64,000 nucleotides of DNA from an uncultured Candidatus Saccharibacteria bacterium (GCA_964487045.1 CAZAOT010000001.1:4875-68874), one strand, 5' to 3'; positions 24,190 to 52,024 are shown, counted from the stretch's first letter. The notes: generated by a model from the letters alone, not told the origin. Program-made: numbers and translations.

Positions 24190-24218
24190 TTGACTTGAAG
24201 CCGATATTATGTTATTTT
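24190..24218 (+). promoter_or_regulatory. candidate sigma70-type promoter TTGACT-N17-TATTTT
   Basis: read directly upstream of G+C-rich gene; weak -10. Confidence 0.3.
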
Positions 24219-24268
24219 TTTGTGTCAGGTTTTTTGCAGCCTGCATCACAGCAAGGGAGGGTTGTACC

Positions 24269-25675
24269 TTGAAACTTCGAGATTTGACTAGGGTTAGTAC
24301 GGCCGGTCAGCTTCATCATCTTCTGAGTAAGAAACGAACCCGCAATGAGAATGTCGAGCTGGGGGCTCTGCTCGAGAGTAATCTAGCGCTTGCCAGGCGA
24401 CTGGTCACCTTGGTGGCTGGCTCTGCTGACGCTAGTCTGGTCAAGATGTTCTCACCGATCTTCTGTCTGCTTTCGTCATCTTTGAGGGCGCAGATGATTG
24501 AGTCTTTCAAGCCGTTCAAGAGCAGAGAGTTTCTGTTCTTCGTCTCAAGTCTACCGGCCAAGGGGCTAAGGTACTTGATCAGGGCCCTCGATAAGATGTC
24601 GTCCGTTGACGACACGAGGTTTTGTCTCGGAAAGCTAGTCGTATCAGGCAATCCCGAATGGCCGGGTGTTATCGGCGAGGCTTTTTCGGACAAGGACCTT
24701 GACAGGTTGCGGGCGCGTGAGCCGATCTGTAGCGAACAATCAGAGGAATTCACTTCTCTACAGGCTATTACCTACATGATCGGTAGCTTGCTCTCAGCCA
24801 GCGTCATTCTTCTGCCGGTGTGTGGTCGGAATCCTCGACCCGAATACAACCTCGCTGGTTTCAAGCTGACAGAGATCAGGCCTCATGAGACATTGGTTAT
24901 GAATGGAGAGAAGTCTCAGAACCACTGGCTTCCTTGGGTATTTCAGACAGAGGAGGGAGTTGAGAAGGCGCTCCACTTACTCGAATTCCTCGTCGGCAGT
25001 CTGAGCCTCTGCGATCAGGGCAACGAGTTGCTCAACAGGATTGGTGACGATGCCGAAAGGATGCTGGTAGAGATCAGTGAGCGCTGGGAAGCAATCAAGA
25101 AAGGCGTGCATCGCTGGGTACTCCCAGATGGACAGATGAAGCTTCGGTTCGGAGGCGACTTTGTCTTCTGTGGCCTGATGGTGACAGAACTTCACCCCGG
25201 GAAGAAAGTACCCGAGATGACGGTCAGAATCGTACAGAATCGATTCGGTTACCTCAAGTTCAAGGATCGGCCTCTCGACGAGAATGGCCTTTTTAAGGAC
25301 ATGGACCTCGGTAAGCAGGTCGGACTGCTCGAACTTGGCATCAACCACAAGGTGGTCTGCTGGCTGGCTGATTACGCTTTGCGACCTTCAAACTACAAGC
25401 CAAAGAATGGTGAAGGCAAGAGTCTTGACCCGATCAAGGTCGCGTTTGGCGAAGGCAAGCTGCCTGCTGGGTTTCACCTTCCTGAGTATATGAATCTCCC
25501 GGACAAGATAAAGCAGAACGGCAAGCCTTACGAAGCCAGTGGCGATGCGAAGAAGCGCGCCGAAGCGCTGGGCTGGGCCGAGCCGACTGATGGTCAGACC
25601 TTTAGGATGTCGGGAGATCCTCTTAAGGAAGGCCTTGGCCTTCCGGAACCCCTCGACATCGTATATGATGTCTGA
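24269..25675 (+). CDS. hypothetical protein, G+C-rich orphan
   Basis: visibly G+C-rich relative to flanks; GGGAGGG Shine-Dalgarno 7 nt before TTG 24269 (MKLRDLTRV...); no recognisable domain. Confidence 0.5.
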   Translation: MKLRDLTRVSTAGQLHHLLSKKRTRNENVELGALLESNLALARRLVTLVAGSADASLVKMFSPIFCLLSSSLRAQMIESFKPFKSREFLFFVSSLPAKGLRYLIRALDKMSSVDDTRFCLGKLVVSGNPEWPGVIGEAFSDKDLDRLRAREPICSEQSEEFTSLQAITYMIGSLLSASVILLPVCGRNPRPEYNLAGFKLTEIRPHETLVMNGEKSQNHWLPWVFQTEEGVEKALHLLEFLVGSLSLCDQGNELLNRIGDDAERMLVEISERWEAIKKGVHRWVLPDGQMKLRFGGDFVFCGLMVTELHPGKKVPEMTVRIVQNRFGYLKFKDRPLDENGLFKDMDLGKQVGLLELGINHKVVCWLADYALRPSNYKPKNGEGKSLDPIKVAFGEGKLPAGFHLPEYMNLPDKIKQNGKPYEASGDAKKRAEALGWAEPTDGQTFRMSGDPLKEGLGLPEPLDIVYDV

Positions 25676-25692
25676 TATCTCTCTATCTCAAA

Positions 25693-25734
25693 GGGGCGCA
25701 CTGTCATCCGACAGGGCGCCCCTTCTCTTTTTTG
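25693..25734 (+). terminator. rho-independent terminator
   Basis: GGGGCGCACTGTC...GACAGGGCGCCCC stem then TTCTCTTTTTTG. Confidence 0.7.
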
Positions 25735-25742
25735 TAAAAAAA

Positions 25743-26318
25743 TTACAGACGAAAAACGCGAATTAGCTTTTCGCTGATTAACTCGCCACGTTCCAGTTTT
25801 TCCGGCAAGTATCGAAGTAAATAATTCCTAACTTCAGTCGAACTTTGGGTACCAAGGGGAATTGCAATTGGGGATTTGAAAAAACCAACTGGCTCGATAT
25901 ATAGAATTGATTTTTGCCCATGCTGGGCAATCCAAAATGACTTTAGCTCATAAAACGGAACATAATTTTCTCTTTGCAGCATTCCGCTCTCATCAATCGC
26001 AAATTCGTGAGTCTTAGGCTTCTCATGAGAAAGTTGGAAGGTAACGATGACTGCTAAAATGATTATTATTACTGGGAAAAAGTTACCGGTGTAGATCAAA
26101 ATCAGAGATAAAACCATCGAAACAAGCCCAACTACTAGTGACCAGTAAGGAGATCTTTCAAAAGTATAATAATCTGGTGCTCTCCAGCGCAATATTTTTT
26201 TGATATTACCAAGCTTGATCGGCCTTGGGGTCGTCTTTTTTTCTTCCGGCCTTTTGGAATCTTTTTTGGATTTTTGAGCCGGTTTCTTGGCTATTTTTTT
26301 GTCTTTTTCTTTGGCCAT
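25743..26318 (-). CDS. hypothetical membrane protein with lysine-rich N-terminus
   Basis: 191 aa, K-rich N-terminus then two TM helices. Confidence 0.45.
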   Translation of the reverse strand: MAKEKDKKIAKKPAQKSKKDSKRPEEKKTTPRPIKLGNIKKILRWRAPDYYTFERSPYWSLVVGLVSMVLSLILIYTGNFFPVIIIILAVIVTFQLSHEKPKTHEFAIDESGMLQRENYVPFYELKSFWIAQHGQKSILYIEPVGFFKSPIAIPLGTQSSTEVRNYLLRYLPEKLERGELISEKLIRVFRL

Positions 26319-26351
26319 TAACTTAATTATAGCACAGCGAGATTTTTTCGA

Positions 26352-26762
26352 TTAATCAATCGATTTTTTTATAGCCTCGGCGATTTTTGCTCTTTCTCCA
26401 GATGTAGTCTCTTTACCGGGCCAGAGTTTGAGGCCATCACCGGAAAAACGGGGCATAATGTGAAGATGAACATGTCCGACAACTTGCCCAGCGTCTTTGC
26501 CGTTATTTAGCCCTAGATTAAATCCGCTAGCTCCCACCGCCTCGTTCAAACTAGAGCCGATTTTTTGCGCTAGCTTCATCATCTCGCAAAGATATTTTTC
26601 TTCTACTTCTTCTAGAGAAGCAAAATGCTTCTGGGGAATTACAAGCGTGTGGCCATTATTTACCGGATTTATATCTAGAAAAGCCAAGACGTATTCATTT
26701 TCAAACACTTTGTCAGCCGGGATTTTTCCTTCTATAATTTGGCAAAAGATACAATTTTCCAT
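26352..26762 (-). CDS. HIT family hydrolase
   Basis: histidine triad GHVHLHIMPR, 136 aa. Confidence 0.75.
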   Translation of the reverse strand: MENCIFCQIIEGKIPADKVFENEYVLAFLDINPVNNGHTLVIPQKHFASLEEVEEKYLCEMMKLAQKIGSSLNEAVGASGFNLGLNNGKDAGQVVGHVHLHIMPRFSGDGLKLWPGKETTSGERAKIAEAIKKSID

Positions 26763-26764
26763 CG

Positions 26765-27217
26765 TTAAAATTTCACTAAATTTTTCTCGAGGTCCTGAAC
26801 AATTAGCTTCTTGCCCTTTGTAACTATTTTATACCCTTCTTTTTCAAGAAGCTTTTTTTGATTTTCTATTCCACCTGGGTATTTATCGTTTAATTCTCCA
26901 GAGCCTTTTAGCGTACGCCAGTAAGGGGCACCATCTTTTAATTCCTCGGAGGCGTTAGCGGCTATCCAAGTAAAGATTCCAGTTGTAAGCGGGCAAGCGA
27001 TCGCAGTTTTATGTTTTTTTGCGAAGTATTGTCTTATGAGAGCAACCGAGGCGAGTTTGCCTTTTGGAACTTTCTTCATTACTTCGTAAACTTCCTCGGG
27101 ACATGGGATGTACATTGTTTCTCCACCCCATTTTTCAGCTGCTTCTTTGTCTAATTTTACAATTTTAGGGAGGTCGTTTTTGGTTTTTAGCTTTTCTACC
27201 CATGACTTTTTAGCCAT
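26765..27217 (-). CDS. MGMT-fold DNA-binding protein lacking the catalytic cysteine (alkyltransferase-like)
   Basis: C-terminal DGAPYWRTLKGSGELNDKYPGGIENQKKLLEKEG mirrors the MGMT PCHRVV...G.L.GY.GG...K..LL..EG pattern with Cys replaced by Tyr. Confidence 0.4.
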   Translation of the reverse strand: MAKKSWVEKLKTKNDLPKIVKLDKEAAEKWGGETMYIPCPEEVYEVMKKVPKGKLASVALIRQYFAKKHKTAIACPLTTGIFTWIAANASEELKDGAPYWRTLKGSGELNDKYPGGIENQKKLLEKEGYKIVTKGKKLIVQDLEKNLVKF

Positions 27218-27225
27218 ACTGCTCC

Positions 27226-27711
27226 TTAGAATTTAGGATTTTCTTTTAAACTATCGGCCCATCCACCAACTAGTCCGCTAAGGATAATTACAACAACCGC
27301 AACCAGTAGATGCCCTAGCATTATTTTACCGACCGACCTTTTTTCAGCTTTAGCTATGAAGTAGGTAAGAATTGAGATCAAAATAAGTCCAAATAGTACT
27401 GATAAAATTATCGCTTGGTTTATTTGCAAAAAGAAAAAGGGAAGGGCAAACAAAATTCCAACAGAAAATTTAGAGATAAAGGTGGAAATTGTTTCTTCCC
27501 ATTTTGATTTTTCGTTGTCCCGCTCGGCTTCATCAGCCATAAAAATTGCAAATGAGTCCGACAAGGCGTCGGTGATGGCGATTACGGCGATACCAGCGAC
27601 AATTACAGAAACTGAATGAGTTCCTTGGTTCAGGCCAATCATCATTCCAAGCGTCGTAATAATACCGCTTGTCAGGCCAAAGCCAAATCCTTTTCTAACT
27701 GCTGATTTCAT
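27226..27711 (-). CDS. VIT1/CCC1 family membrane protein (putative iron/manganese transporter)
   Basis: GFGFGLTSGIITTLGMMIGL and overall five-TM layout typical of VIT family. Confidence 0.55.
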   Translation of the reverse strand: MKSAVRKGFGFGLTSGIITTLGMMIGLNQGTHSVSVIVAGIAVIAITDALSDSFAIFMADEAERDNEKSKWEETISTFISKFSVGILFALPFFFLQINQAIILSVLFGLILISILTYFIAKAEKRSVGKIMLGHLLVAVVVIILSGLVGGWADSLKENPKF

Positions 27712-27766
27712 AGTTTGATTTTACTCCTTAATCCAGTGTTTCGGCAAGGGTTATGTTAATTTTTCT

Positions 27767-27795
27767 TCTTGATTTGGCGCCTCGCTTGTACTATA
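27767..27795 (+). promoter_or_regulatory. sigma70-type promoter TTGATT-N17-TATACT
   Basis: -35 at 27767-27772, -10 at 27790-27795, exact 17-nt spacer; precedes G+C-rich plsY-like operon. Confidence 0.5.
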
Positions 27796-27803
27796 CTCTG
27801 CGG

Positions 27804-27821
27804 ATCTCAAGATTTCTCTTG
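27804..27821 (+). promoter_or_regulatory. perfect palindrome CTCAAGA-TTTC-TCTTGAG (candidate operator)
   Basis: 7-bp inverted repeat immediately downstream of the -10 element. Confidence 0.4.
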
Positions 27822-27868
27822 AGTTGCGACGAAATAGTGAACATTGACATAGAAGGGAATGGTTACGA

Positions 27869-29638
27869 ATGCAAGAGCTGGTGCTGTTTGTTGCTGTAAT
27901 CGGCTATCTGATCGGGTCGATACCGATCGGCTATCTGATTGGCAAGAAGTTCGGCGTGAATCTTCTCGAAGAAGGGTCTAAGGCGATCGGCCGGACCAAC
28001 CTCGAGCGGGTTCTCGCGCCGATCATCGGCGCCAAGCGCGCCAAGCTCTGGGGTTATATCGGCGAGGCAGGCGACCAGCTCAAGGGACTCGTCCCAATTC
28101 TGATTGGTATGCTTCTGCTTCGTCTTGACCCCATCTCGCTCGCTGTCCTCGCTACTTCGCTCATTCTCGGCCACTGCTACTCTGCGTTTCTTTTCTTCAG
28201 GGGTGGCAAGGGAGTCGCGACGACGATGGGCATCGTGCTTGCTCTTTGCTGGTACATCGCTGTGCCATGCTACGTGTTCTGGTTTGCCGCCAAGAAAGCG
28301 CTCGAGACCAAGACGCAGGAGGCAACCGCACTCGCTTCGATTCGCGGAGGTCTTCTGGTTGGTGTTCTGGGAGTCATGGTCACGCACGACCTGGCCATGC
28401 AGATCTTCTTCGCCTTTGCTGCGCTTCACATCGTTTTTGCTCACCGCGAGAACCTGAAGCGCTACAGGCAGGAACAGCTGCAGAAGAAGCTTGAGAAAGC
28501 AAGCTTCCCGGACGATATGCCGACCGGTGTATTCATCACCGATGCGGCTACGAACAATCCTGAGACGGTCAAGCGGCTTCTGATGCAAAAGAAGAAGTTC
28601 GCCTGGCTCGTCAACCTCTTTCCGGCCCAGTTCGTCTGCGACGTGATTCTCCCCATCATCCCGATGAAGTACCTGAAGATGGGCGAGGTCATCCTCGAGA
28701 ATGATCTTGGGGCCAAGGTCAGAGTTGTGACCTGGGGCTACCCGGACATCCCAAGACGAATGATGGAGAACCCGGGCCGTACGATCTCGAGGCTACTTGA
28801 TCTTTGTTCATACGTCGAGTCGCTTGGTGCAGACGACATCTGCCTTGGCGCCAACACAGCCAGTGTCGGCGACAAGGGAGCAACGCTTCAGCAGTTTGCC
28901 CAGTCGATCACGAACGGCAATCGCCTAACCTGCGTCTATGCGGTTAAGGCTGCTCTCAAAGTGCTAGACACAATGCTAATCCCTCGAGGAACCGCTGTAG
29001 CAACTGTGGTTGGCAGTGGCGGCTCAGTAGGAGATGGCGTGTGTCAGCTTCTGCTCAAGGCCGGTATCGGACGCCTGTATTTGGTTGGAAGCACTCTTGG
29101 TAAACAGGCTGGTCAGGCAACTGAGCTCTCGAGGCGTTTTGGGGTTCCGGTTGAAGAACTGGGACTAATGGACGCCCTCTCGCGAAGTCATCTGGCCATC
29201 TTTGCCTCTAGTGGTACGGCCAGAGAGAACGCGCACAAGATCAATCCCGAGGCGCTTCCAGCAGGCTTGATTGTCGTTGACATGGAACGCCCGCGCGAGA
29301 TCTCAAAGATGCTTGCCGAGTATGTGTGGCTTCTGCCGAACGATGGTGGCATGGTTGCTATCGAAGGAACGGGCAAGGCTGGGACTGGCTTGCCTGAAGG
29401 CGTTTACTTCCCTTGTTTCAGCGAACTAGCCTTGCGCCTCTTCCGCGGAATCAGGACGAAGTGGTGCTATCCAGCTACTCTCGAGGAATTGAGGGAGGTT
29501 TGGGAAGCGGCTGAGGAGGAAGGCTTCTCTCTAGCTGGTCTGCGTCTTAATGAGCAGCCAGTTGAAGATCATGAGCTTGCTTTCCGTATCGAGCAAGCAG
29601 AGATGGCAAAAGCCTACAAACCCAGGAGGGTGACATGA
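27869..29638 (+). CDS. PlsY-like glycerol-3-phosphate acyltransferase domain fused to a C-terminal Rossmann-fold (GxGxxG) domain
   Basis: N-terminal 200 aa align by eye with PlsY (YLIGSIP, LGHCYSAFLFFRGGKGVATTMG, FAHRENLKRY) but GSGNxGATN motif is GSKAIGRTN; C-terminal about 390 aa contains VVGSGGSVGDGVCQLLLKAGIGRLYLVGST dinucleotide-binding motif; G+C-rich. Confidence 0.55.
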   Translation: MQELVLFVAVIGYLIGSIPIGYLIGKKFGVNLLEEGSKAIGRTNLERVLAPIIGAKRAKLWGYIGEAGDQLKGLVPILIGMLLLRLDPISLAVLATSLILGHCYSAFLFFRGGKGVATTMGIVLALCWYIAVPCYVFWFAAKKALETKTQEATALASIRGGLLVGVLGVMVTHDLAMQIFFAFAALHIVFAHRENLKRYRQEQLQKKLEKASFPDDMPTGVFITDAATNNPETVKRLLMQKKKFAWLVNLFPAQFVCDVILPIIPMKYLKMGEVILENDLGAKVRVVTWGYPDIPRRMMENPGRTISRLLDLCSYVESLGADDICLGANTASVGDKGATLQQFAQSITNGNRLTCVYAVKAALKVLDTMLIPRGTAVATVVGSGGSVGDGVCQLLLKAGIGRLYLVGSTLGKQAGQATELSRRFGVPVEELGLMDALSRSHLAIFASSGTARENAHKINPEALPAGLIVVDMERPREISKMLAEYVWLLPNDGGMVAIEGTGKAGTGLPEGVYFPCFSELALRLFRGIRTKWCYPATLEELREVWEAAEEEGFSLAGLRLNEQPVEDHELAFRIEQAEMAKAYKPRRVT

Positions 29639-30804
29639 ACAGTAGGGTGGCCGTGCTTGGAGCGGGCCAGTTTGGCTTTGCTCTTGCTTGCCGATTGGCT
29701 CAAGGCGGGATAAAGACGGTTCTGTGGGGCCGTAGTCCGCATATTCTCAGCGGTCCGCGGGCAGTCTCACAGCGGTTCAGTGGTGGATCGCCGCCCCTTG
29801 GGCTTCAAGTTACTGGCGGATCAGGTCTTCCCAGCCTGGATGACTTTGACCTGGTCTTTGTCGCCACTGATTCTTCTGGACTCGCTGAGCTAGTCCCGAT
29901 GATCGCCCAGAGTGATATTGGCGATACGCCGGTTCTTCTTGTCCAGAAGGGTCTTGTGAATGGTGTCTCTCCCGTGGAATTCGCTAGCGCCGCCGGACTT
30001 AACGCCGGTTCGTTTACCGGCGCGGCCTTCGCAAGTGACATCTATCTCGGCTCTGAGGCGATGATGATCGTCGCAGCCGAGGACGTTACCCTCTGCATTA
30101 CAGTGATGGAGCTGCTTAAGCCCCTTAAGTTCTGGATAACTGCATGTAGTGATCCAGACGCGATCTGCGCTGCCAACGTAGCGCGAACGATCACCTCGAT
30201 CGAGATGGGTATTGTCAGCGGCTTCGCGGACTACTTGCAGCGCCAATCAAAGTATGCACTGGTGCCGCATAGGTCGCCTGACTTTACTCCAACCGAGATC
30301 GCGGCGGCCACCGCTAGCATCCAGTACGAGTGGCGGGTTGTCTCAGCGATGCTTAGTCCGGTGATTAACTCCTTGCTCTATCCAGAAGTAGTCTCGGATG
30401 ATGTTTCGATCGTGCGCAACATCAATCGCGAGCGCATTCTCAGGGTCCTTTCCGCTGACAACTACCTCTGCAGCGGGATGATACTCGACCGTAACGACAG
30501 GGGAGGAGATTCTCGGGTGACTCTGGGTCTTCCTCTCGCCACACCGGTCTCGCGCAACTGGCGGTTTGGCTATGCGCTTGGCTGCTGGCGTTATGTCCCG
30601 GATGCCATAAGGGCGGTTGCTGACCTTGGAGTGATCCAGGGGCAGCAGAACGCTCTTGATCTATACAAGCGGTTCGGTGCGAGCGCCCCGCCGTTTCTCA
30701 CCTCCCTTGGCCGAATCTTGACTGAAGTGTCAAAGGTCGAGGAGGAGATCCAGGTCATTCGCGATCGTCGCGATGCCTGGTATGAAAAGTACGCTTCTAG
30801 CTGA
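29635..30804 (+). CDS. divergent NAD(P)H-dependent glycerol-3-phosphate dehydrogenase (GpsA)-like protein
   Basis: VAVLGAGQFGFALACRLAQGGIKTVLWGRS matches GpsA N-terminus; region equivalent to GGAVKNVIAIGAG reads AANVARTITSIEMG (Lys to Arg); overlapping stop/start with upstream gene. Confidence 0.5.
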   Translation: MNSRVAVLGAGQFGFALACRLAQGGIKTVLWGRSPHILSGPRAVSQRFSGGSPPLGLQVTGGSGLPSLDDFDLVFVATDSSGLAELVPMIAQSDIGDTPVLLVQKGLVNGVSPVEFASAAGLNAGSFTGAAFASDIYLGSEAMMIVAAEDVTLCITVMELLKPLKFWITACSDPDAICAANVARTITSIEMGIVSGFADYLQRQSKYALVPHRSPDFTPTEIAAATASIQYEWRVVSAMLSPVINSLLYPEVVSDDVSIVRNINRERILRVLSADNYLCSGMILDRNDRGGDSRVTLGLPLATPVSRNWRFGYALGCWRYVPDAIRAVADLGVIQGQQNALDLYKRFGASAPPFLTSLGRILTEVSKVEEEIQVIRDRRDAWYEKYASS

Positions 30805-30823
30805 GCTATGCTCGGTCTTACAC

Positions 30824-30861
30824 GGGCTCCCGGAAGTTTTCCGGGAGCCCGTTTCTTTTTT
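30824..30861 (+). terminator. rho-independent terminator
   Basis: perfect 10-bp stem GGGCTCCCGG/CCGGGAGCCC, 7-nt loop, GTTTCTTTTTT tail. Confidence 0.75.
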
Positions 30862-31729
30862 AGTACAAATCTAACTTTGGTTTTTTCTTTTGATAATTTG
30901 CGAATGCTTTTTTCCAACTTTTTGACCAGTAACCGGGCTTCTTGCGGTAATCTTCAAACAGAAATAATCCGCAGTACGGACAAAGTTTCTCCAATTGTTC
31001 GCGCATCGAATCTTTATCCTCTGGCAGAGTTTTTCTTCCTAAATTGAAGCCCATAATTCGATCAATTGATCCAGCATTCGGGCAAGCATAATAGCCGTGC
31101 TTGGTAAGTGATTTGCCGCACTGGTTTAGAACTAGGCAGCCATTTCTAAAATCTGCATCCTTATATCGTTTGCGATCTCGAGGTGCAGCGTTGATAGAGA
31201 TAAAGTAGCCGTGTATTTGAGAGGTCTTTTTATTGTTTTGGATAATTATGCCTTCTGGCAACTTTTTAATCTCATCTTGAACTTTTTTACCGACCCCATT
31301 GGTGATGATTTTAATTTCTGATTTTGGTGAAAAATCGCGTTTATATTTTAAAAGCAAGCGAAACATCCCCATAGTTTCTGGTTCGAGCGTTGATTCTCCG
31401 CCATAAACCGTTATCCTTCCCCATTTCTTACCCGCTTTTTTCGACTCGGAAATAAATTTTTTCACTTGCTCAATCGTCATTTTCTCGCGCGATGGAGCTT
31501 GGCGACACATCTGAGAGCAGTCGTAACATTTGAGGTTGCAATGATAGGTGGTGATTAAATCTACTTTATTAGGGTCGCTTCTGTAAGCATAACCAAGTAT
31601 CTTGGTCACTCTAGGATTGATTCGAAAACGGTGCCAATTATCTTTTAAGAAAAAATAGCTCCAGCGAGCAGCTTTTTTCAGTGGTTTTATTCTATATACT
31701 ATCTTCCGAACAAAAAAGTTTTCTGTCAC
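30860..31729 (-). CDS. radical SAM domain protein, function unknown
   Basis: CNLKCYDCS (CxxxCxxC) 4Fe-4S motif about 60 aa from N-terminus; extra C-terminal cysteines (CPNAGS, CPYCG). Confidence 0.55.
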   Translation of the reverse strand: MTENFFVRKIVYRIKPLKKAARWSYFFLKDNWHRFRINPRVTKILGYAYRSDPNKVDLITTYHCNLKCYDCSQMCRQAPSREKMTIEQVKKFISESKKAGKKWGRITVYGGESTLEPETMGMFRLLLKYKRDFSPKSEIKIITNGVGKKVQDEIKKLPEGIIIQNNKKTSQIHGYFISINAAPRDRKRYKDADFRNGCLVLNQCGKSLTKHGYYACPNAGSIDRIMGFNLGRKTLPEDKDSMREQLEKLCPYCGLFLFEDYRKKPGYWSKSWKKAFANYQKKKPKLDLY

Positions 31730-31734
31730 GTGGA

Positions 31735-32277: not shown

Positions 32278-32301
32278 CTTAGCCGTTTTGGCAAATCAAT
32301 G

Positions 32302-40899: not shown

Positions 40900-40969
40900 T
40901 TGCCGCCAAAGGAGAAATCTGCTAAGATTTCTCTAGTGAGCGAAGCTCACTAAAAAACTTGAAATTGTC

Positions 40970-43496: not shown

Positions 43497-43586
<90 letters not shown>

Positions 43587-43677: not shown

Positions 43678-43706
43678 TTGATTGTATGGGTATATTCTAG
43701 TATTAT
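43678..43706 (+). promoter_or_regulatory. sigma70-type promoter TTGATT-N17-TATTAT
   Basis: -35 43678-43683, -10 43701-43706, 17-nt spacer; same -35 hexamer as promoter at 27767. Confidence 0.5.
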
Positions 43707-43750
43707 GACGTGACGAGAATTCGCGTTCATTACAGAGGAGAGAGTGCCAT

Positions 43751-44179: not shown

Positions 44180-44200
44180 TGGCCGGGAGGGGAGTACAGC

Positions 44201-44512: not shown

Positions 44513-44535
44513 GGCTGATGCCTGCGAGCATCTTT

Positions 44536-44576
44536 GGCGGTTTGTCCGGTCACCCGGACAAACCGCCTTCTTTTTT
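44536..44576 (+). terminator. rho-independent terminator
   Basis: perfect 14-bp stem GGCGGTTTGTCCGG/CCGGACAAACCGCC, loop TCAC, TTCTTTTTT tail. Confidence 0.8.
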
Positions 44577-45321: not shown

Positions 45322-47427
45322 TCAGAGAGCTGGCCAGGAAGCGTCGATGAGCATTTTGCTCTCTCGTTGCTCCTCGGGTAGCTCTTGCCAACATGCTTCA
45401 GTTACAAACGGCATGTATGGGTGAAGCAATTTCAAGCTTGTTTTCAATATTTTTGTAAGCTTTAAGAGAGACGTCTTTTTTTCTCGTTCATCGCCGCCAT
45501 AAAGACGTTTCTTTTCCTGCTCTATAATCTTATCAGCAAACTCATGCCAAATATAAGCGTACAAATGTTCGCCTGCTTGTGAAAATTTAAACTCATCGAT
45601 CAGTTTTGTAACTTCTGAAGTAACCTTATCCAGATTCTCTATATCTTTTTTATCTTGATCTGAAAAATTAGATTCCTCAGTATCAATTTCAATATTTTCC
45701 AGATTTGTTACTACAAATCTGGCAATATTCCAAATCTTGTTTGAAAAATTACGATACCCTCTGATTTTGCTTTCACCAAGGGCTATATCCTGACCTGCGG
45801 TAGTTCCGACAATCAAGGAATATCTCAGGGCGTCGGCGCCGTATTTTTCGATAATATCTATTGGATCAATCACGTTGCCAAGAGATTTGGACATCTTGCG
45901 ATTCTTTTCGTCCCTTACGAGGCCATGCAGGTAAACAGTCTCAAAAGGAGCTTTGCCTGTCAGCTCTAATCCCATCATGATCATCCTGGCGACCCAGAAA
46001 AACAAGATGTCATAACCTGTTTCCATGACTGTTGTTGGGTAGAAGTTCTTGTAATCTTCAGCATCTTTGTCTGGCCAGCCAAGAGTGGAGAATGGCCAAA
46101 GTCCACTTGAGAACCAAGTATCGAGTACATCTTCTTCTTGCACCCAGCCGTCACCCTCGGGAGCTTTTTTGCCAACATAAATTTCTTCTCCCTTATACCA
46201 AACCGGAATTTGGTGGCCCCACCAGAGTTGGCGCGAGATACACCAGTCGCGTATATTATCCATCCAATGGAAGTAAACTTTTTCAAAACGCTTTGGCATA
46301 ATTTTGATCTCGCCTGACTCCACCGTTTTTTTGGCTTTCTCGGTGAGTGGTTTCATCTTTACGAACCATTGCTTTGATGGAATTGGTTCAATTTGACCAC
46401 CGCAGCGGTAACAAGTGGCTATATTATGTTCGTAATTTTCTTCAATATGATCGATTAGACCCATTTTCTGCATATCTTCGACAATTGCTTCGCGAGCCTC
46501 CTTGGTCTTCATGCCGGTATATTTACCGGTGTTCTCCATCATGCGGCCGTTTTCGTCTATCACTTGTTTAAGTGGAATATCGTTGCGCTGAGCAATTTCA
46601 AAATCAACCAAGGAGTGAGCAGGGGTAACCTTGATCGCACCTGTGCCGAATTTTGGGTCGACGGCGTTATCAGCGACGACAACAATTTCAAAATCTCCCA
46701 GTACTCCCGGAATCATAAATTTCTTGCCAACCATATCCTTATATCTCTTATCGGTTGGGTGAACGGCGACTGCAGTGTCGCCAAGCTTTGTCTCTGGTCT
46801 AGCGGTAGCTAAGGTAAATGGACCATATTTAATCCAGTAGAATTTGCCAACTTCTGGTTTGTGCTCAACTTCATCATCGGCAATTGCGGTGTGGCAGCGG
46901 GGGCACCAGTTAACTGTGCGCAGCCCCTGATAAATAAGTCCCTTATCGTATAAATTTACAAATGCTTCTTTGACTGCTTCGGATAGTCCCTCGTCTAGGG
47001 TAAAGCGTTCTCTTGTCCAGTCACAGGAAGCACCAAGTTTTCTAATTTGAGAGGTGATAGTATTGCCGTATTCTTCTTTCCATTGCCAAACTCGCTCCAC
47101 AAACTTTTCACGTCCTAAGTCGTGTCGCCTCAAACCTTCTTTGGAAAGTTGCTTTTCGACAACATTTTGAGTGGCGATGCCAGCGTGGTCAGTTCCGGGA
47201 AGCCAAAGAGTTGGTTCTCCCCTCATGCGATGGTAGCGAGCCATAATGTCCTCGAGCGTTACGTACATACCATGGCCGATATGAAGTTTGCCGGTCACGT
47301 TTGGCGGAGGCATCGAAATAACAAAAGGTTTTTTACCTTCTTCTATTTTTGGAGTGAAGGATCCGCTATCTTCCCATTTTTTATATATTTCGTCTTCAAA
47401 AACTTTGTGGTTGTAAGCCTTATCCAT
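45322..47427 (-). CDS. valS: valyl-tRNA synthetase, short form
   Basis: PPPNVTGKLHIGHG (class I HIGH, ValRS-type PPPNVTG) and KMSKS; about 700 aa, lacks long C-terminal coiled coil. Confidence 0.75.
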   Translation of the reverse strand: MDKAYNHKVFEDEIYKKWEDSGSFTPKIEEGKKPFVISMPPPNVTGKLHIGHGMYVTLEDIMARYHRMRGEPTLWLPGTDHAGIATQNVVEKQLSKEGLRRHDLGREKFVERVWQWKEEYGNTITSQIRKLGASCDWTRERFTLDEGLSEAVKEAFVNLYDKGLIYQGLRTVNWCPRCHTAIADDEVEHKPEVGKFYWIKYGPFTLATARPETKLGDTAVAVHPTDKRYKDMVGKKFMIPGVLGDFEIVVVADNAVDPKFGTGAIKVTPAHSLVDFEIAQRNDIPLKQVIDENGRMMENTGKYTGMKTKEAREAIVEDMQKMGLIDHIEENYEHNIATCYRCGGQIEPIPSKQWFVKMKPLTEKAKKTVESGEIKIMPKRFEKVYFHWMDNIRDWCISRQLWWGHQIPVWYKGEEIYVGKKAPEGDGWVQEEDVLDTWFSSGLWPFSTLGWPDKDAEDYKNFYPTTVMETGYDILFFWVARMIMMGLELTGKAPFETVYLHGLVRDEKNRKMSKSLGNVIDPIDIIEKYGADALRYSLIVGTTAGQDIALGESKIRGYRNFSNKIWNIARFVVTNLENIEIDTEESNFSDQDKKDIENLDKVTSEVTKLIDEFKFSQAGEHLYAYIWHEFADKIIEQEKKRLYGGDEREKKTSLLKLTKILKTSLKLLHPYMPFVTEACWQELPEEQRESKMLIDASWPAL

Positions 47428-47495
47428 AGGTTTAATATTAGCGCAATTCAAGGAGAAAACAAGATGAAACTGTGAAAGCTGGAAGCAATTAGTGA

Positions 47496-47524
47496 TTGAC
47501 TAATTATTACTCTTGAGCTATATT
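47496..47524 (+). promoter_or_regulatory. sigma70-type promoter TTGACT-N17-TATATT
   Basis: -35 47496-47501, -10 47519-47524, 17-nt spacer; followed by GCCCC-TTAT-GGGGC leader hairpin. Confidence 0.5.
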
Positions 47525-47575
47525 TTCAGGATTGAGTGCCCCTTATGGGGCCCAAAGGACATTGAGGTGATGGCG

Positions 47576-48730
47576 ATGCGAATCGGCATGTTCACTTTGA
47601 CTTATGGAAGGTCTAACGGCGTGGCCGTCTCCGTCGCCAATCTGAGCCGCGCGCTTCGCGAAGCCGGCCATGAAGTTCATATCTTCGGGCCAAGCGGTGT
47701 GGCGGATACAGACGAATTCTACCATCCGTTCGTGACGGTGCGATTTCCCCAGGCTCCGGACTATCCGGTGCCAATACCGAACTTCCTGCGTGCTCTCAAG
47801 ATAGCGCGTCGGTACAATCTTAAGCTTATGCACACTCACCATCCTTGGCTGCTCGGCAGTGATGCGGTGAGGGTGGCGCGCGAGCTGGAGGTGCCGGTAG
47901 TTTCCACGGTGCACACTCAGTATGATTTCTACTCCGAGCTTTTCCCGTGGATTCCGAGCAAATGGAAGCGCAAAGCGCTGCATTGGGTGCTCAGGCGTCA
48001 CCTCTGCAGTGTCGATCTGGTGACGACGCCGGGCATTGGTTCCAAGGCGCGCCTGGATGACATGCAGCTGACTACGCCGGTTCGTCTCGTCACCAACGGC
48101 ACCGACCTGTCGCTCTTCGGGTATGGCGGCGCCAACGAAATCAGACGCCAGCTCAGAATTCCGGAAGGCGCCCAGGTCTTCGGCTATGTTGGCCGGTTCG
48201 ATCCCGAAAAAGATCTCGGCACCCTGATCGATGCGGCGGCTAAAGTGTTCAAATGGCATCCGCGAGCCGTGCTGCTCATGGTCGGCGACGGTAAAGAGCG
48301 CGAATCGCTCGAGTGGAAATCCAAACCGCTCGGCAACCGAGTCATCTTCACCGGCCGAATTGCCCACGAGCAAATCGCGCCCTACTACAGCGCGATGGAT
48401 ATCTTCGTCACGCCGAGTAGGTTCGAGGTTCAGCCGATGACCATCGCCGAAGCGTTTGCCAGCGGTTTGCCGGTCGTTGCTTTGGATGTGCCTGGCAGCG
48501 AGATGGTCCATCACGGCTACAACGGCCTGCTCGTGGATCCAGCCCAACCGGTAAGCGCCCTGGCTCGAGGAGTCAGTCAGATCTTTAGCGACCCATTCCG
48601 ACATCTGACGCTACAGGGCCACGCCAGAGAGTCGGCGCGGCAGTACGAAACCGCCGAAGCTTTGTCACAGATGCTCAGTGCCTACCAAGACGCCGGCTAC
48701 TTCTGCCGCACTCGTCAGTCGTCCGTCTAA
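47576..48730 (+). CDS. GT4 family glycosyltransferase (GT-B), G+C-rich xenologue of the adjacent gene
   Basis: aligns by eye with 48804-49958 product (VHTQYDFYSELFPWIP vs VHTQYDLYAKLIPLPQ; VDLVTTPGIGSKARL vs VDLVTTPGEGSKQRL; EVQPMTIAEAFASGLPVV vs EVQPMTFAEAMATGTPIV); start ATG 47576 with GAGG 8 nt upstream. Confidence 0.65.
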   Translation: MRIGMFTLTYGRSNGVAVSVANLSRALREAGHEVHIFGPSGVADTDEFYHPFVTVRFPQAPDYPVPIPNFLRALKIARRYNLKLMHTHHPWLLGSDAVRVARELEVPVVSTVHTQYDFYSELFPWIPSKWKRKALHWVLRRHLCSVDLVTTPGIGSKARLDDMQLTTPVRLVTNGTDLSLFGYGGANEIRRQLRIPEGAQVFGYVGRFDPEKDLGTLIDAAAKVFKWHPRAVLLMVGDGKERESLEWKSKPLGNRVIFTGRIAHEQIAPYYSAMDIFVTPSRFEVQPMTIAEAFASGLPVVALDVPGSEMVHHGYNGLLVDPAQPVSALARGVSQIFSDPFRHLTLQGHARESARQYETAEALSQMLSAYQDAGYFCRTRQSSV

Positions 48731-48746
48731 CAAGTAATGGTTCCGT

Positions 48747-48778
48747 GGCCGGAGGTTCGCCTCCGGCCTGTTTTTTTT
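48747..48778 (+). terminator. rho-independent terminator
   Basis: GGCCGGAGG-TTCG-CCTCCGGCC then TGTTTTTTTT. Confidence 0.75.
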
Positions 48779-48803
48779 GAAAAAAGGTTCTACAATTAGG
48801 GTG

Positions 48804-49958
48804 ATGAAGATCGCAATTTTTACTAATACCTATTGGCCAACTGTAAATGGCGTAGCTGTTTCGGCGACTAATTTGCGCGAAGGACTCATTCAGCTTGGAC
48901 ATGAGGTTTTTATCTTTGCGCCAGACGACGAAGATTTGAAGAAGTTGAAAGAACAGGCTAACGTTTATCGCTATCCATCTTTCAATATTAAAGAAATTGC
49001 TGATTATGAATTGGCGCTTCCGTCCTTGAAGATTAATGAAGTTTTAGATAAAAATTCCTTTGATATCGTGCACAGCGAACATCCGCTCTGGATAGGAAAG
49101 TGGGGGATGAATTATGCCAAAAAAACCAATACCCCGATTATTACAACCGTTCATACTCAGTACGATCTCTACGCCAAATTAATACCGCTACCCCAGGGAA
49201 TTTTGGTACCAATTTTACATAAAAATCTTAATCGATATTTAAATAATGTTGATTTAGTGACGACTCCAGGGGAGGGATCGAAGCAAAGGCTGATTGAGCA
49301 AGGAGTGAAGACGCCGATCAGGGTGGTTTCAAACGCGACCGATCTCAGTAGGTACTGGAAGGCCAAAGGAGATAAGGTACGCCGTGAGCTGACTAACAAT
49401 AATGAGAAATTGATTGGGTTTGTCGGGCGGCTATCGAAGGAAAAAGACGTTTCTGTCTTACTTGATGCAATGAATCTTATTTTAAATAAAATGCCTGATA
49501 GTAAGCTCATTTTGATTGGTGATGGTCCGGATAGAAAAGAGCTCGAGGAAAAAGCCAAAACTATTTCAAACAAAATTGTTTTTCTTGGCAAAATTGATCA
49601 TAAACAAATCCCTGATTATTATGCCTCCTTTGATATTTTTCTCTCGGCTAGCCAGTCGGAGGTTCAGCCAATGACTTTTGCCGAAGCGATGGCAACCGGT
49701 ACGCCGATTGTTGTTTTTAATGTTGCTGGTTGTAATGATATGGTGAAAAATCGCGAGAATGGACTATTGATTGACCCTAAAAAGGGCGCCCAGGGATTGG
49801 CAGATGCGGTGACAAAGATTTTAGTAAACGAAAAAGAGTTAAAAAAATTAAGCTCTCAGGCTAGAAAATGGGCCAGCCGCTATGATCTGATGACGGCGAC
49901 CAAAGATATGGTTGAAGCCTATGAGCAGGCAATCAAGATTCACTCAAACAAGAACTAA
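48804..49958 (+). CDS. GT4 family glycosyltransferase (GT-B), A+T-rich native copy
   Basis: MKIAIFTNTYWPTVNGVAVS N-terminus and E-x7-E region typical of GT4 retaining transferases (resembles diacylglycerol alpha-glycosyltransferases by eye). Confidence 0.65.
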   Translation: MKIAIFTNTYWPTVNGVAVSATNLREGLIQLGHEVFIFAPDDEDLKKLKEQANVYRYPSFNIKEIADYELALPSLKINEVLDKNSFDIVHSEHPLWIGKWGMNYAKKTNTPIITTVHTQYDLYAKLIPLPQGILVPILHKNLNRYLNNVDLVTTPGEGSKQRLIEQGVKTPIRVVSNATDLSRYWKAKGDKVRRELTNNNEKLIGFVGRLSKEKDVSVLLDAMNLILNKMPDSKLILIGDGPDRKELEEKAKTISNKIVFLGKIDHKQIPDYYASFDIFLSASQSEVQPMTFAEAMATGTPIVVFNVAGCNDMVKNRENGLLIDPKKGAQGLADAVTKILVNEKELKKLSSQARKWASRYDLMTATKDMVEAYEQAIKIHSNKN

Positions 49959-51079
49959 ATACCTAGCCCAATTGCTGTTTTGGCTTCCTTTAGAGTTTCC
50001 TGCGCATCGGGGGCGACTTTTGAAGCGCCGTCCGAGAGAATTTTTTTGAGGTTTTCTTTATCGGCAATCAGTTCGTTAAATTTTTCTCTAACTGGCTTTA
50101 ACTCGGCGATGACTGCTTCTGCCAAGGCCTCTTTGAATTCGCCATAGGTTTTGCCTTCAAATTCTTTTTCAATTTCGCTAATTTCCCGGCCGGTAACCCC
50201 GGAAAAAATATTAAGTAGATTGGTGATAGCAGGTTTATCTTCTCCAGCTTTGATTTCATTTCCAGAATCTGTGACCGCTTTTTTAATCTTGGTTCTAATC
50301 GTCTTATCATCATCAGTTATAGCAATGTAATTTGCGGGTGATGGGGCTGATTTTGACATTTTCTTTTTAGGATCATCAAGTCCCATAATTCTAGCGGTTT
50401 CTTTGCGGATTAAAGGTTCTGGAACGGTAAAGATTTGCCCATATTTATTATTAATTCTTTGGGCAATATCTCGGGTTATCTCAATATGTTGTTTTTGATC
50501 TTCGCCGACCGGAACTTGATCGGTTTGGTAAAGCAAGATATCAGCGGCCATGAGCGCTGGGTAGTCAAAAAGGCCAACTGAACTTATATCGTAGGATTTA
50601 CGTTCGGATTCTTCTAGGATATTTTTTGCAAGGTCTATTCTCTTTTCATTATTATCTTGTAATTCTTTTAGCTGTTCGGGTGAATTTATTTTATCGACTA
50701 ATCTTTTTATGACATTATCTGAAATTCTGTCTCTTATTTCACTCGATTTTTCCTTAAATTGGGTCATGCGGTTAAGCTCACCCATATAGGTATGGCAATT
50801 TAAAATCCAAGCTAGTTCGGAGTGCTCGGGACGGTCAGACTGAACAAAAATTGTTGATTTATTGGGGTCGATGCCAGAAGCAATATAGAGTGCGGCGACT
50901 TCTAGTGTCTTTTCTTTTAAAACTTTTGGATCTTGGGGAACGGTAATTGCATGCAGATCGACGATGCAAAAGATGCACTCGGCTTCATCTTGAACCTTGG
51001 CCCATTGCTTAAGTGCCCCTAAATAATTTCCTAAATGTAGGTTGCCCGACGGCTGTACGCCGGAAAAGATTTTTTTCAT
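49955..51079 (-). CDS. trpS: tryptophanyl-tRNA synthetase
   Basis: GVQPSGNLHLGNYLGA (HIGH-type) and KMSKS; 374 aa. Confidence 0.75.
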   Translation of the reverse strand: MKKIFSGVQPSGNLHLGNYLGALKQWAKVQDEAECIFCIVDLHAITVPQDPKVLKEKTLEVAALYIASGIDPNKSTIFVQSDRPEHSELAWILNCHTYMGELNRMTQFKEKSSEIRDRISDNVIKRLVDKINSPEQLKELQDNNEKRIDLAKNILEESERKSYDISSVGLFDYPALMAADILLYQTDQVPVGEDQKQHIEITRDIAQRINNKYGQIFTVPEPLIRKETARIMGLDDPKKKMSKSAPSPANYIAITDDDKTIRTKIKKAVTDSGNEIKAGEDKPAITNLLNIFSGVTGREISEIEKEFEGKTYGEFKEALAEAVIAELKPVREKFNELIADKENLKKILSDGASKVAPDAQETLKEAKTAIGLGI

Positions 51080-51244
51080 TTTTATAGATCCTTCGACAAG
51101 CTCAGGATTAAAATGCCTTTTTAATTTTCTATTAAAACATTTTCAATTTAACAAAATTAAGGGGTTACCACAACTATTTGCTTGAAAATCGTCTGAAGGG
51201 TGTTAATTTTAATATAGATTCGGGGACCGAAGGGTAGGTGATAG

Positions 51245-51538
51245 ATGAAACTAGCATTTGTCCGCACTGAGAAGGGCTGGCAGCGAGGTTACTTCAGCGG
51301 AAGGATGCTGGTCGTAGGAGACAGCAAGCCAATCTCTGAAGTAGAGGCCAGAAGGCAGCTCAGCTTGCCAGGGGAAACGATCGTCAAGGTGATCGTTTCA
51401 GACCAAGTCTTTCGCGCCTATGACGTACTGATGAGACGGGACGATATGAAACCGGAGCAGGTCCAAATGGGTCTGCTGCCAAAGCCTGACAAACCCCGAA
51501 GAGGGTGCTTGATGTGGTTTCTTCCGCGCCATCATTGA
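51245..51538 (+). CDS. hypothetical protein, G+C-rich
   Basis: 97 aa; SD GGGTAGGTGA before ATG; no motif. Confidence 0.35.
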   Translation: MKLAFVRTEKGWQRGYFSGRMLVVGDSKPISEVEARRQLSLPGETIVKVIVSDQVFRAYDVLMRRDDMKPEQVQMGLLPKPDKPRRGCLMWFLPRHH

Positions 51539-51553
51539 TCCCGAATCTTACAA

Positions 51554-51592
51554 GGGACGCTCCGCCTTGTGCGGTACGTCCCTTTTCCTTTT
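51554..51592. terminator. possible bidirectional terminator between convergent G+C-rich genes
   Basis: GGGACG...CGTCCC stem followed by TTTTCCTTTT; A-run on the other side. Confidence 0.35.
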
Positions 51593-51648
51593 AAAAGTAA
51601 AACGCCCCCCGGACCGTTGGCTCGGGGCATGAGGTTGGCTGGCCGGTG

Positions 51649-51924
51649 CTACTTCTTCTTTGGCCACGCCGGGCAGAGGACGAAGGCAAGCAAGGTGAAT
51701 CCGAGCGCGATGGGCGTTCCGAGGAACGCCCAGGCGACCCCGCTCCATCCCCAGATGGCTCCGGCTGTGACGCACCACCCGATCCATCCGGCGATCCCGA
51801 TGACAAGGGTCCAGAGAATCTTGTCGCCGGCATGGCGGATCCTGGGACAACTTAGGCCGATGAAGACAGCGGCCAAGAGCAATCCCCCTCCAACCGAAAT
51901 CAATGCGGGTACCATCGCACCCAT
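51649..51924 (-). CDS. small membrane protein, G+C-rich
   Basis: 91 aa, three TM helices rich in Trp/Gly; SD AAAGGATGG. Confidence 0.4.
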   Translation of the reverse strand: MGAMVPALISVGGGLLLAAVFIGLSCPRIRHAGDKILWTLVIGIAGWIGWCVTAGAIWGWSGVAWAFLGTPIALGFTLLAFVLCPAWPKKK

Positions 51925-52024
51925 CCTTTCTGTTCTGTTGCCAGATTGTCAAAACGCGATCTGGATATACTAACTCAAGGACAGCTATATTGCAAGCGTA
52001 TGGTTTCGATAATATAGTCGGTTT

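Follow-up and report, generated by a model that had tools for sequence, protein, structure and literature searches.

Morons, as defined for phages of the HK97 and HK022 type (Cumby, Davidson & Maxwell, 2012; PMC3594210), are extra genes that lie in a phage or prophage between genes adjacent in its relatives, differ from the flanking genes in composition, and have a promoter and a factor-independent terminator of their own. They often encode small membrane or accessory proteins. Genomic islands and horizontal gene transfer (HGT) have been documented in Patescibacteria (PMC12455944). Here we describe eight short G+C-rich islands of a similar layout in a 64,000-nt stretch of the genome of an uncultured Candidatus Saccharibacteria bacterium (GCA_964487045.1, CAZAOT010000001.1:4875-68874; hereafter, the window). 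Computational analysis shows the eight segments to be predicted autonomous accessory transcription units with one to four G+C-rich open reading frames (ORFs) each, which occupy intergenic slots between A+T-rich core genes.

The architecture may be likened to a chromosomal equivalent of phage morons. The islands differ in composition from the flanking genes and have predicted promoters and terminators at their ends. A pair of GT4 glycosyltransferase genes, one of them in island 7, is inserted between genes that are adjacent in relatives; the slots of islands 1, 2, 6, and 8 are occupied in relatives too. Unlike morons, the islands reside in a cellular chromosome among housekeeping genes rather than in a phage or prophage, at least two of them keep their slot in relatives that have diverged, and they are G+C-richer than the host. 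With chromosomal HGT hotspots, or genomic islets, as these are generally understood, they share a small number of conserved slots, varied accessory genes, nearby tRNAs, and atypical composition. However, the units are tiny (0.3-3 kb) and individually insulated, their bias is opposite to that of the usual A+T-rich accessory DNA, and the offset persists in vertically inherited islands. Integron cassettes are likewise compact mobile single-gene units among unrelated genes, but the islands have no shared flanking repeats or attC sites and no IntI (the only recombinase is of the serine type), carry their own promoters, and are scattered rather than arrayed. Finally, regions of GC-biased conversion, or isochores, known in eukaryotes and proposed in bacteria, combine a local rise of GC at all codon positions with faster protein divergence, as the islands do. 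To our knowledge, isochore-like discrete gene-sized units with a 20-point offset in the GC content of third codon positions (GC3) have never been described in a bacterial genome, and our literature search found no published description of a conserved gene-sized GC mosaic in genomes of the Candidate Phyla Radiation (CPR).

G+C-rich islands in an A+T-rich backbone

We segmented the window with a two-state hidden Markov model (HMM) of GC content, supplemented by a 500-nt GC profile. The HMM yielded eight high-GC segments of 53-61% GC in a backbone of 38-42% GC, and no such segments in 1-24235 and 51927-64000. They agree nearly base for base with the eight segments proposed in a preliminary description made from the sequence alone. 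The units are listed below with the HMM segments in brackets; promoters and terminators come from scans for the sigma70 consensus and for a hairpin followed by a T-run, that is, they are predicted signals.

24190-25735, plus strand: island 1 (24236-25722, 53% GC); predicted promoter 24190-24218 (TTGACT-17-TATTTT, with a TG), Shine-Dalgarno (SD) sequence AGGGAGG, TTG start at 24269, 468-aa orphan ORF to 25675, predicted terminator at about 25691-25735 (readable hairpin)
27769-30852, plus strand: island 2 (27901-30851, 56.5% GC); predicted promoter 27769-27797 (TTGATT-17-TATACT), fusion of PlsY with an acyl-ACP (acyl carrier protein)-reductase-like part 27869-29638, GpsA-like gene 29635-30804, predicted terminator 30822-30852 (14-bp stem)
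37231-38153, minus strand: island 3 (37229-38049, 55% GC); predicted promoter 38153-38125 (consensus scan), four small ORFs at 38077-37943, 37927-37706, about 37700-37434, and 37423-37271, predicted terminator 37264-37231 (15-bp stem)
40194-40900, plus strand: island 4 (40194-40892, 57% GC); SD AAGGAG, TTG start at 40226, 206-aa ORF to 40846, predicted terminator at about 40866-40900 (readable hairpin)
42409-42692, plus strand: island 5 (42409-42692, 61% GC); 284 nt, possible 65-aa basic ORF 42438-42635, terminator-like hairpin 42670-42691
43498-43586: tRNA-Ser, adjoining island 6
43678-44567, plus strand: island 6 (43779-44567, 59% GC); predicted promoter 43678-43706 (TTGATT-17-TATTAT), ORFs 43751-44179 (142 aa) and 44201-44512 (103 aa, transmembrane, GC3 0.81), predicted terminator 44536-44567 (14-bp stem)
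47496-48768, plus strand: island 7 (47534-48770, 59% GC); predicted promoter 47496-47524 (TTGACT-17-TATATT), GT4 glycosyltransferase from about 47576 to 48730 (GC3 0.70), predicted terminator 48747-48768 (9-bp stem with 8 GC pairs)
48777-49958, plus strand: A+T-rich GT4 paralog directly 3' of island 7 (GC3 0.42)
51221-51926, both strands: island 8 (51221-51926, 58% GC); convergent genes 51245-51538 (plus, 97 aa) and 51924-51649 (minus, 91 aa, transmembrane), which share a central hairpin/terminator region

A 700-nt segment of 57% GC against 40% is about nine standard deviations off chance. At the level of genes, GC3 is bimodal, ranging from 0.56 to 0.81 in the 14 island ORFs and from 0.35 to 0.47 in the 23 backbone ORFs of the same region; the overall GC content is 0.52-0.62 and 0.36-0.43, respectively. 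All three codon positions (GC1, GC2, and GC3) are elevated in the islands. The codon usage of the islands is like that of another genome, with AAG at 0.77, ATC at 0.71, CAG at 0.78, and TTA at 0.01, while the backbone has AAA at 0.68, AAG at 0.32, ATT at 0.46, ATC at 0.31, and TTA at 0.19. Glycine, alanine, arginine, and proline together make up 0.30 of island residues vs. 0.21 in the backbone. The dinucleotide signature of the islands is off that of the backbone, and the islands are closer among themselves (delta* of 107-170 between islands and host, 51-98 between islands, and 52+/-24 for 3-kb chunks of the host). Correlations of tetranucleotide z-scores were too noisy for use at the 3-kb scale. 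The GC contrast noticed by eye thus holds on computation, in GC content and in codon usage alike. Long ORFs on the opposite strand had been taken for high-GC artefacts, and we agree, since the Pfam domains of PlsY and GT4, as well as the order GC3>GC1>GC2, typical of coding sequence and seen in nearly every island ORF, fall on the called strand.

Predicted expression signals

The predicted promoters at 24190, 27769, 43678, and 47496 all read TTGAYT with a 17-nt spacer; the same four had been picked out in the preliminary description (with 27767 for 27769). A candidate near 40094, upstream of the cargo gene of island 4, fell below the threshold of the consensus scan, in line with its earlier assessment as weak. 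The best hairpin-and-T-run terminators of the region 23.5-52.5 kb, every one of them, lie at the 3' end of an island, where intrinsic terminators had been reported before. In the island-free region 1-20 kb, no terminators with more than four GC pairs were found and there was no excess over shuffled sequences. The SD sequences of the islands are stronger than those of the backbone: ten of the 14 island genes, vs. 11 of 40 backbone genes, have an SD match of 5 nt or more in front of them. The TTG starts at 24269 and 40226 agree with the two TTG starts mentioned earlier along with the strong SD. The islands are mostly antisense to the flanking core-gene operons: ten of the 14 island genes are on the plus strand, vs. 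four of the 23 backbone genes of the same region. As far as can be judged from sequence, an island forms a self-contained transcription unit that brings its own promoter, SD, and terminator.

The 9-mer TTGACATAG has exactly two copies in the window, at 27844-27852 (plus strand) and 38089-38097 (minus strand). Both lie just 5' of the SD of the first gene, in islands 2 and 3, and 11-17 nt from the start codon. The 9-mer is unchanged upstream of the orthologs of island 2 in three metagenomic contigs considered below (L087, 9976-9984; L088, 280-288; L098, 142-150), whose proteins show no more than 46-65% identity. Possibly, the 9-mer is an element of translation or regulation common to these units. 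The 5' untranslated region (5'UTR) of island 2 starts with a 7-bp hairpin at 27798-27840, found also at about 98-135 in L098, 236-265 in L088, and 9935-9965 in L087. Its pairing is kept by compensatory changes, CTCAAGA/TCTTGAG, ACCGAGA/TCTCGGT, and ATCGAGA/TCTCGAT (aligned by eye, the automatic alignment being mis-registered), and it looks like a 5'-terminal stabilising stem-loop.

Conserved slots in related genomes

The tryptophanyl-tRNA synthetase (TrpRS) of the window shares 60-61% identity with the TrpRS proteins from a Candidatus Berkelbacteria metagenome-assembled genome (L008) and from 'WS2 bacterium ADurb.Bin280' (L007); therefore, the backbone belongs to a CPR (Patescibacteria) genome of that neighbourhood. 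The core genes flanking the islands encode aminoacyl-tRNA synthetases, a peptidyl-prolyl isomerase (PPIase), and sugar enzymes.

Contig L087 from a JGI metagenome is syntenic with the window at 20-32 kb. Its gene order, with G+C-rich genes in brackets, is:

GT2, DUF2304, GT2, epimerase, (453-aa orphan), 192-aa gene, HIT, VIT1-like, (PlsY-fusion, GpsA-like, 324-aa gene), PPIase

GC3 is 0.63-0.74 in the bracketed genes and 0.41-0.54 in the others. The G+C-rich operon of island 2 is also present in L088 and L098, and in L087 and L088 it occupies the same slot. In L098, separate but overlapping genes encode PlsY and the reductase, which form a fusion in the window. The slots of islands 1 and 2 are still G+C-rich in relatives with backbone proteins that are 60-87% identical. 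Contig L098 (1-3124; Logan SRR30681658, three samples) comprises the promoter, plsY, the reductase gene, the gpsA-like gene, and the terminator, and nothing else. Its ends overlap by 24 nt, which, with k=31, fits a direct repeat of about 36 nt in the terminator loop region and not a simple circle.

L007 and L008 keep the gene order TrpRS, valyl-tRNA synthetase (ValRS), TPR gene. In both, G+C-rich genes of small membrane proteins (GC3 0.64-0.80 vs. about 0.50) occupy the slot of island 6, next to the TPR gene, and the slot of island 8, between TrpRS and a 208-aa gene; no sequence similarity between these genes and the island proteins of the window was detected. The GT4 pair, which separates TrpRS and ValRS in the window, is absent from L007 and L008, where the two synthetase genes are adjacent. 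A more distant relative, L096, found by a metagenome scan anchored on the VIT1-like backbone gene, has no synteny with the window and no mosaic in 20 kb. These comparisons of contigs show G+C-rich cassettes in conserved slots to be an apparently clade-wide pattern.

Independent assemblies

A contrast in composition could by itself result from a chimeric assembly or contamination, with foreign G+C-rich reads stitched into an A+T-rich contig, and the preliminary description left this alternative standing. Using exact-protein look-ups, we found independent assemblies in the Logan contigs of four runs (SRR11845623, SRR11845624, SRR11845625, and SRR29243437). Over 24289-34597, 46393-49469, and 49472-58779, these contigs match the window at 100% identity, apart from one mismatch in one 6.9-kb contig. 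In them, both junctions of islands 2, 7 (contig L102), and 8 (L001 and L002) are reproduced exactly, as is the junction of island 1 on its right side; this check does not extend to the junctions of islands 3, 5, and 6. Moreover, the same mosaic is present in contigs of other projects and species, and the promoter regions conserved in relatives bridge the junction. A chimera is therefore rejected for island 1 (right junction) and islands 2, 7, and 8, and overall we consider this explanation extremely improbable.

Island contents

CPR bacteria are assumed not to synthesise lipids themselves and to rely on host cells. The islands had been described as carrying membrane- or lipid-related cargo, and the domain matches retain this lipid and envelope flavour, at the family level only. 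PlsY is a glycerol-3-phosphate acyltransferase and GpsA an NAD(P)H glycerol-3-phosphate dehydrogenase. The PlsY domain of the island-2 fusion scores 105 bits with Pfam PF02660 (cut-off 24, E 5e-30) and 111.7 bits with the NCBIfam equivalog TIGR00023, below the cut-off of 137.2; the C-terminal 380 aa of the fusion resemble acyl-ACP reductase or the N-terminus of PigE. In the protein encoded by the second gene, only the N-terminal PF01210 passes (31.7 vs. 23.1 bits), the C-terminal PF07479 does not, and all NCBIfam scores are far under the cut-offs, so that by its domains it is GpsA-like and not a confirmed GpsA. The island-7 protein belongs to family GT4 according to Pfam. Its best match among curated models is monoglucosyl-diacylglycerol synthase (NF049988, cut-off 400), at 105.9 bits, far under the cut-off; its A+T-rich neighbour scores 174.9.

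Tiny transmembrane proteins are found in several islands, including three of the four small proteins of island 3. Only five of 1.84 billion representative proteins are relatives of the 468-aa protein of island 1, and the amino-acid composition of all five is of the G+C type. The AlphaFold2 (AF2) model of the island-1 protein has a pLDDT of 77 and an ARM-like N-terminal domain; no informative structural neighbour of the model was found. The 206-aa protein of island 4 has no homolog among 5.8 billion proteins, and its single-sequence AF2 model is unusable (pLDDT 34).

Structured non-coding RNA genes are typically G+C-rich in A+T-rich genomes. As two of the segments, at about 1.5 and 3.0 kb, are of rRNA-like length, and as island 5, the weakest of the eight, is short and has a weak ORF, we also considered such RNA genes in place of protein genes. 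The likelihood of this is close to nil. Rfam yields three tRNAs and no other RNA families, both for the whole window at gathering thresholds and for 37-52 kb at E<=1, where the rest is sub-threshold noise. The segments are filled by ORFs of 206-589 codons with the GC3>GC1>GC2 order and Pfam domains, and island 5 folds no better than shuffled sequence on either strand (z-scores of -1.0 and -0.4), giving no support for a structured RNA. For seven islands, the coding ORFs, the Pfam domains, and the negative Rfam result led us to reject the RNA reading.

A putative integrative element at tRNA-Arg

38245-38321, plus strand: tRNA-Arg(GCG) (ARAGORN and Rfam), target site for the integration of the element that adjoins it on the right
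38301-41208: integrative element of 2.9 kb, bounded by a 22-nt direct repeat
39776-38307, minus strand: large serine recombinase, module 1 of the element, with a probable start at 39776 after AAGGAGG

The repeats and genes around island 4 show it to be the cargo of a putative tRNA-integrated serine-recombinase element. The 22-nt direct repeat is the 3' end of tRNA-Arg (38301-38322 = 41187-41208), and 3' of the second copy there is what appears to be the displaced original terminator of the tRNA. The recombinase matches PF00239 (Resolvase), PF07508 (Recombinase), and PF13408 (Zn_ribbon_recom), all over the cut-offs, and is about 25% identical to phage serine integrases. It is flanked by inverted repeats of about 100 nt (38316-38417 / 39815-39916), and the cargo module by perfect 95-nt inverted repeats (39910-40004 / 40970-41064). 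The core GTACCAG is common to all four junctions, and the junctions are four combinations of two left and two right arms, a pattern that reads as the trace left by site-specific recombination. The two modules may be invertible. The Logan contig with the cargo, L100, ends exactly 30 nt (k-1) inside each inverted-repeat arm, which is how a real repeat breaks a k=31 graph. The GC3 of the recombinase gene is 0.37 vs. 0.71 in the cargo; therefore, the GC mosaic exists even inside a 2.9-kb mobile element.

Like other tRNA-targeting elements with large serine recombinases (phiC31/TnpX/ccr-type), the island-4 element, alone among the islands, has the tRNA 3'-end repeat at both ends and an ORF that enters the att site. 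Unlike them, it is only 2.9 kb long and consists of two nested modules with inverted repeats of about 100 nt and the common GTACCAG, which recalls invertible (Hin-like) segments more than a plain integrase cassette. Within 38307-38417, the recombinase ORF crosses the arm of the inverted repeat and the att core and continues into tRNA-Arg at its 3' end; hence, the C-terminus of the recombinase would change on excision or inversion.

Relatives of the island proteins

We searched for donors with three word-indexed searches and one exhaustive HMMER search over up to 5.8 billion proteins. The PlsY fusion has four true relatives, two of them 62% and 46% identical and the other two stand-alone reductase proteins. 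On the three contigs read (L087, L088, and L098) they are all G+C-rich, and in L087 and L088 they lie in the same mosaic context. The next matches, 32-36% identical, cover the PlsY domain only. The best external match of the island-7 GT4 is 36% identical, and the contexts of the best external GT4 matches (L089 and L092, 35-36% identity) are free-living-type genomes with 61-66% GC. No homolog of more than about 60-70% identity was found in a composition-matched genome, the best out-of-clade matches being 32-36% identical. The island proteins are near-orphans.

The island-7 GT4 and its A+T-rich neighbour are 38% identical and align with 274 bits, compared to 209 bits for the best external match. 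In a neighbour-joining tree, the two group with protein P0022 in 155 of 200 bootstraps. P0022 (L099, GCA_030669635.1, DAOVDF010000659.1, 445-1617) is the closest database relative of the A+T-rich GT4 (42% identity) and is 34% identical to the island GT4; its contig is uniformly 64% GC (GC3 0.82). This means that the GT4 subfamily exists in a G+C-rich organism and spans very different genome compositions. Judging by the scores and the tree, the A+T-rich neighbour is the closest known relative of the G+C-rich island-7 GT4, which speaks against a simple recent transfer.

Divergence and vertical inheritance

The proteins of island 2 are 63% identical between the window and L088 and 46% identical between the window and L087, while the backbone proteins are 68-87% and 65-75% identical, respectively. 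From genome to genome, the GpsA-like proteins share 25-30% identity; for the island-1 protein, the value is 26% over 205 aa. In general, island proteins diverge far faster than flanking proteins (26-63% vs. 60-87% identity). The phylogeny of island 2 in L087, L088, and L098 is congruent with that of the backbone. Its same slot, conserved promoter, compensated 5'UTR hairpin, invariant TTGACATAG, and backbone-parallel distances suggest that island 2 was inherited vertically.

At four-fold degenerate sites of conserved residues, the third-base identity is 0.28-0.43 vs. 0.23-0.30 expected by composition, for island and backbone alike. The turnover at these sites implies a per-lineage relaxation factor of roughly 0.25-0.45, based on few sites. 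The backbone GC3 is 0.40 in the window vs. about 0.50 in L007, L008, L087, and L088. On the branch separating the window from L007 and L008, we counted 49 GC->AT vs. 18 AT->GC changes at four-fold sites (with no outgroup polarisation). The window lineage appears to be drifting towards A+T.

Origin of the islands

In the reading that we favour, and to which we would give an even chance, the islands are moron-like accessory cassettes that reached hotspot slots by horizontal transfer from a G+C-richer pool, on separate occasions and in some cases in the distant past. A foreign origin is suggested by the contrast in composition, codon usage, and dinucleotides, the distinct translation and termination signals, the mostly antisense orientation, the insertion of the GT4 pair, and the island on a mobile element. 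Moreover, L007 and L008 fill conserved slots with G+C-rich genes unrelated to those of the window, as in known HGT hotspots, and the GT4 subfamily has a relative in a contig of uniformly 64% GC; both observations support this reading. Cassettes would enter a few tolerated hotspot slots by transfer from the G+C-richer gene pool, and one route may still be visible in island 4 on its serine-recombinase element in tRNA-Arg. Islands 1 and 2 would have entered before the split from the relatives and then been inherited vertically, with their proteins diverging much faster than the backbone. The promoter and terminator could insulate a unit from the opposing host transcription and allow its independent expression. 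The products might remodel the cell envelope by supplying and acylating glycerol-3-phosphate, through glycosyl transfer of the glycolipid type, and with small membrane proteins.

A number of observations count against such acquisition. Among the 5.8 billion proteins no donor for the island proteins was found, so that the identification of a donor lineage by database search, as proposed in the preliminary description, did not succeed. None of the 14 island and 23 backbone ORFs has an intermediate GC content, although a series of decaying acquisitions would predict such genes. The promoters are alike in style across islands, and TTGACATAG is common to islands 2 and 3; such uniform control regions suggest a common regime rather than diverse donors. 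Direct or inverted repeats above shuffled controls, sought within +/-260 nt of every island, flank only island 4 and none of the other seven. The only PHROG match among the window proteins is the PlsY domain, 2.9 million viral contigs contain no relatives of island 2 or of the recombinase, and a fold search against BFVD found no structural match to viral proteins. About three quarters of the inferable four-fold sites have changed on the window branch, and those of island 2 are about 75-90% turned over. Nevertheless, the GC3 offset between islands and backbone is 0.16-0.24 in all five genomes and tracks the shift of the backbone baseline. By a rough calculation from few sites, had there been one ancient transfer with neutral amelioration ever since, the four-fold sites of the islands must have started from a GC content of about 0.95 or more. 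Hence, simple amelioration of one ancient transfer fails to explain why the old islands are G+C-rich; the synonymous turnover, set against the kept offset, appears to be a real difficulty for it and not a proof of maintenance. The preliminary description mentioned neither the mobile element of island 4 nor the presence of the mosaic throughout the clade. The piecemeal horizontal acquisition that it proposed is in keeping with this element and with the insertion of the GT4 pair, whereas islands 1 and 2 seem old and vertically inherited, the island GT4 goes with its A+T-rich neighbour, and neither the lack of a donor nor the persistent offset fits the proposal.

A possible, if less probable, explanation is that the genome is intrinsically two-compartment, i.e., that the islands are long-resident, vertically inherited genes whose G+C-richness is actively maintained by biased conversion or by selection on mRNA or codons, in an isochore-like and clade-shared manner. 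The maintaining force would also speed the evolution of island proteins, which are indeed much more diverged than the flanking ones. This agrees with the bimodal GC3 in five genomes, where the offset is kept despite the shifted backbone baseline, with the gap between the GC contents of island and backbone genes, with the nearly saturated synonymous sites, and with the rise of GC1, GC2, and GC3 together, as biased fixation predicts. The congruent phylogeny, synteny, and conserved promoter and 5'UTR of island 2 also fit, as does the G+C-rich GT4 being nearest to its A+T-rich tandem neighbour. On the other hand, transfer certainly happens, as seen from island 4 on its mobile element and the GT4 pair inserted relative to L007 and L008, and the distant L096 is free of the mosaic in 20 kb. 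Furthermore, the polarised four-fold counts are small, and at this saturation the estimator of equilibrium GC returns the current composition by construction. The strength of GC-biased conversion reported in bacteria is small. Slightly less probable again is the bolder proposal of a CPR clade with a stable gene-sized two-compartment genome, in which the core genes are A+T-rich and an active process keeps autonomously expressed, fast-evolving, mostly membrane-related cassettes some 20 GC3 points above them in all lineages. The G+C-richness would then be a maintained state and not the fading trace of a foreign origin. The candidates for such a process are GC-biased conversion at recombination hotspots, selection on transcript composition, and, more speculatively, the tuning of expression in a G+C-rich host cell. 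Finally, the islands might be deposits of a clade-specific G+C-rich mobile element or phage family, that is, true morons left by prophages or plasmids and repeatedly re-seeded, which would explain the common style of the control signals. The similar dinucleotide signatures of the islands point this way, as do the location of island 4 in an integrative element with a recombinase resembling phage serine integrases, and the 24-nt overlap of the L098 ends, which fits a cassette with direct repeats of about 36 nt at its borders (the k-1 logic being verified on L100). We consider this improbable, given the negative PHROG, viral-contig, and structural searches, the A+T-rich recombinase gene, which resembles the backbone, and the lack of phage structural genes in the window.

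The candidate lineage-specific envelope genes of the window form a distinct, separately wired, and fast-evolving compartment, which points to where host adaptation may occur, and their GC contrast offers an easy means of finding similar genes in the genomes of other CPR bacteria. If the G+C-richness is maintained, this would be a rare clean isochore-like case in bacteria, in which biased conversion or selection on GC, a matter of long debate, could be tested within one genome on orthologous cassettes. In metagenome-assembled genomes, filters that use composition to detect 'recent HGT' or contamination would wrongly flag or remove such genes.

Other features

In the ValRS of L008 (10986-13484), some 120 aa containing CxxC motifs are inserted; the ValRS of the window (45322-47451) lacks this insertion. 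The ValRS of L007 has a different insertion, N-terminal and of low complexity. In the window (33471-34147 and 34508-34659), a gene with a Fic domain overlaps a small helix-turn-helix gene, both beside tRNA-Ser(GCT); the two resemble a toxin-antitoxin or excisionase-type pair. At 34508-34540, there is a 33-nt imperfect inverted copy of the 3' part of tRNA-Ser(GCT), a possible remnant of another integration. Further downstream, 52712-63063 holds two giant tandem genes (1967 and 1487 aa) with Laminin_G_3 and many fibronectin-III-like repeats, which probably encode surface adhesins. Their GC2 of 0.48 is unusually high, their GC3 is backbone-like, and a relative with 54% identity is present in L096.

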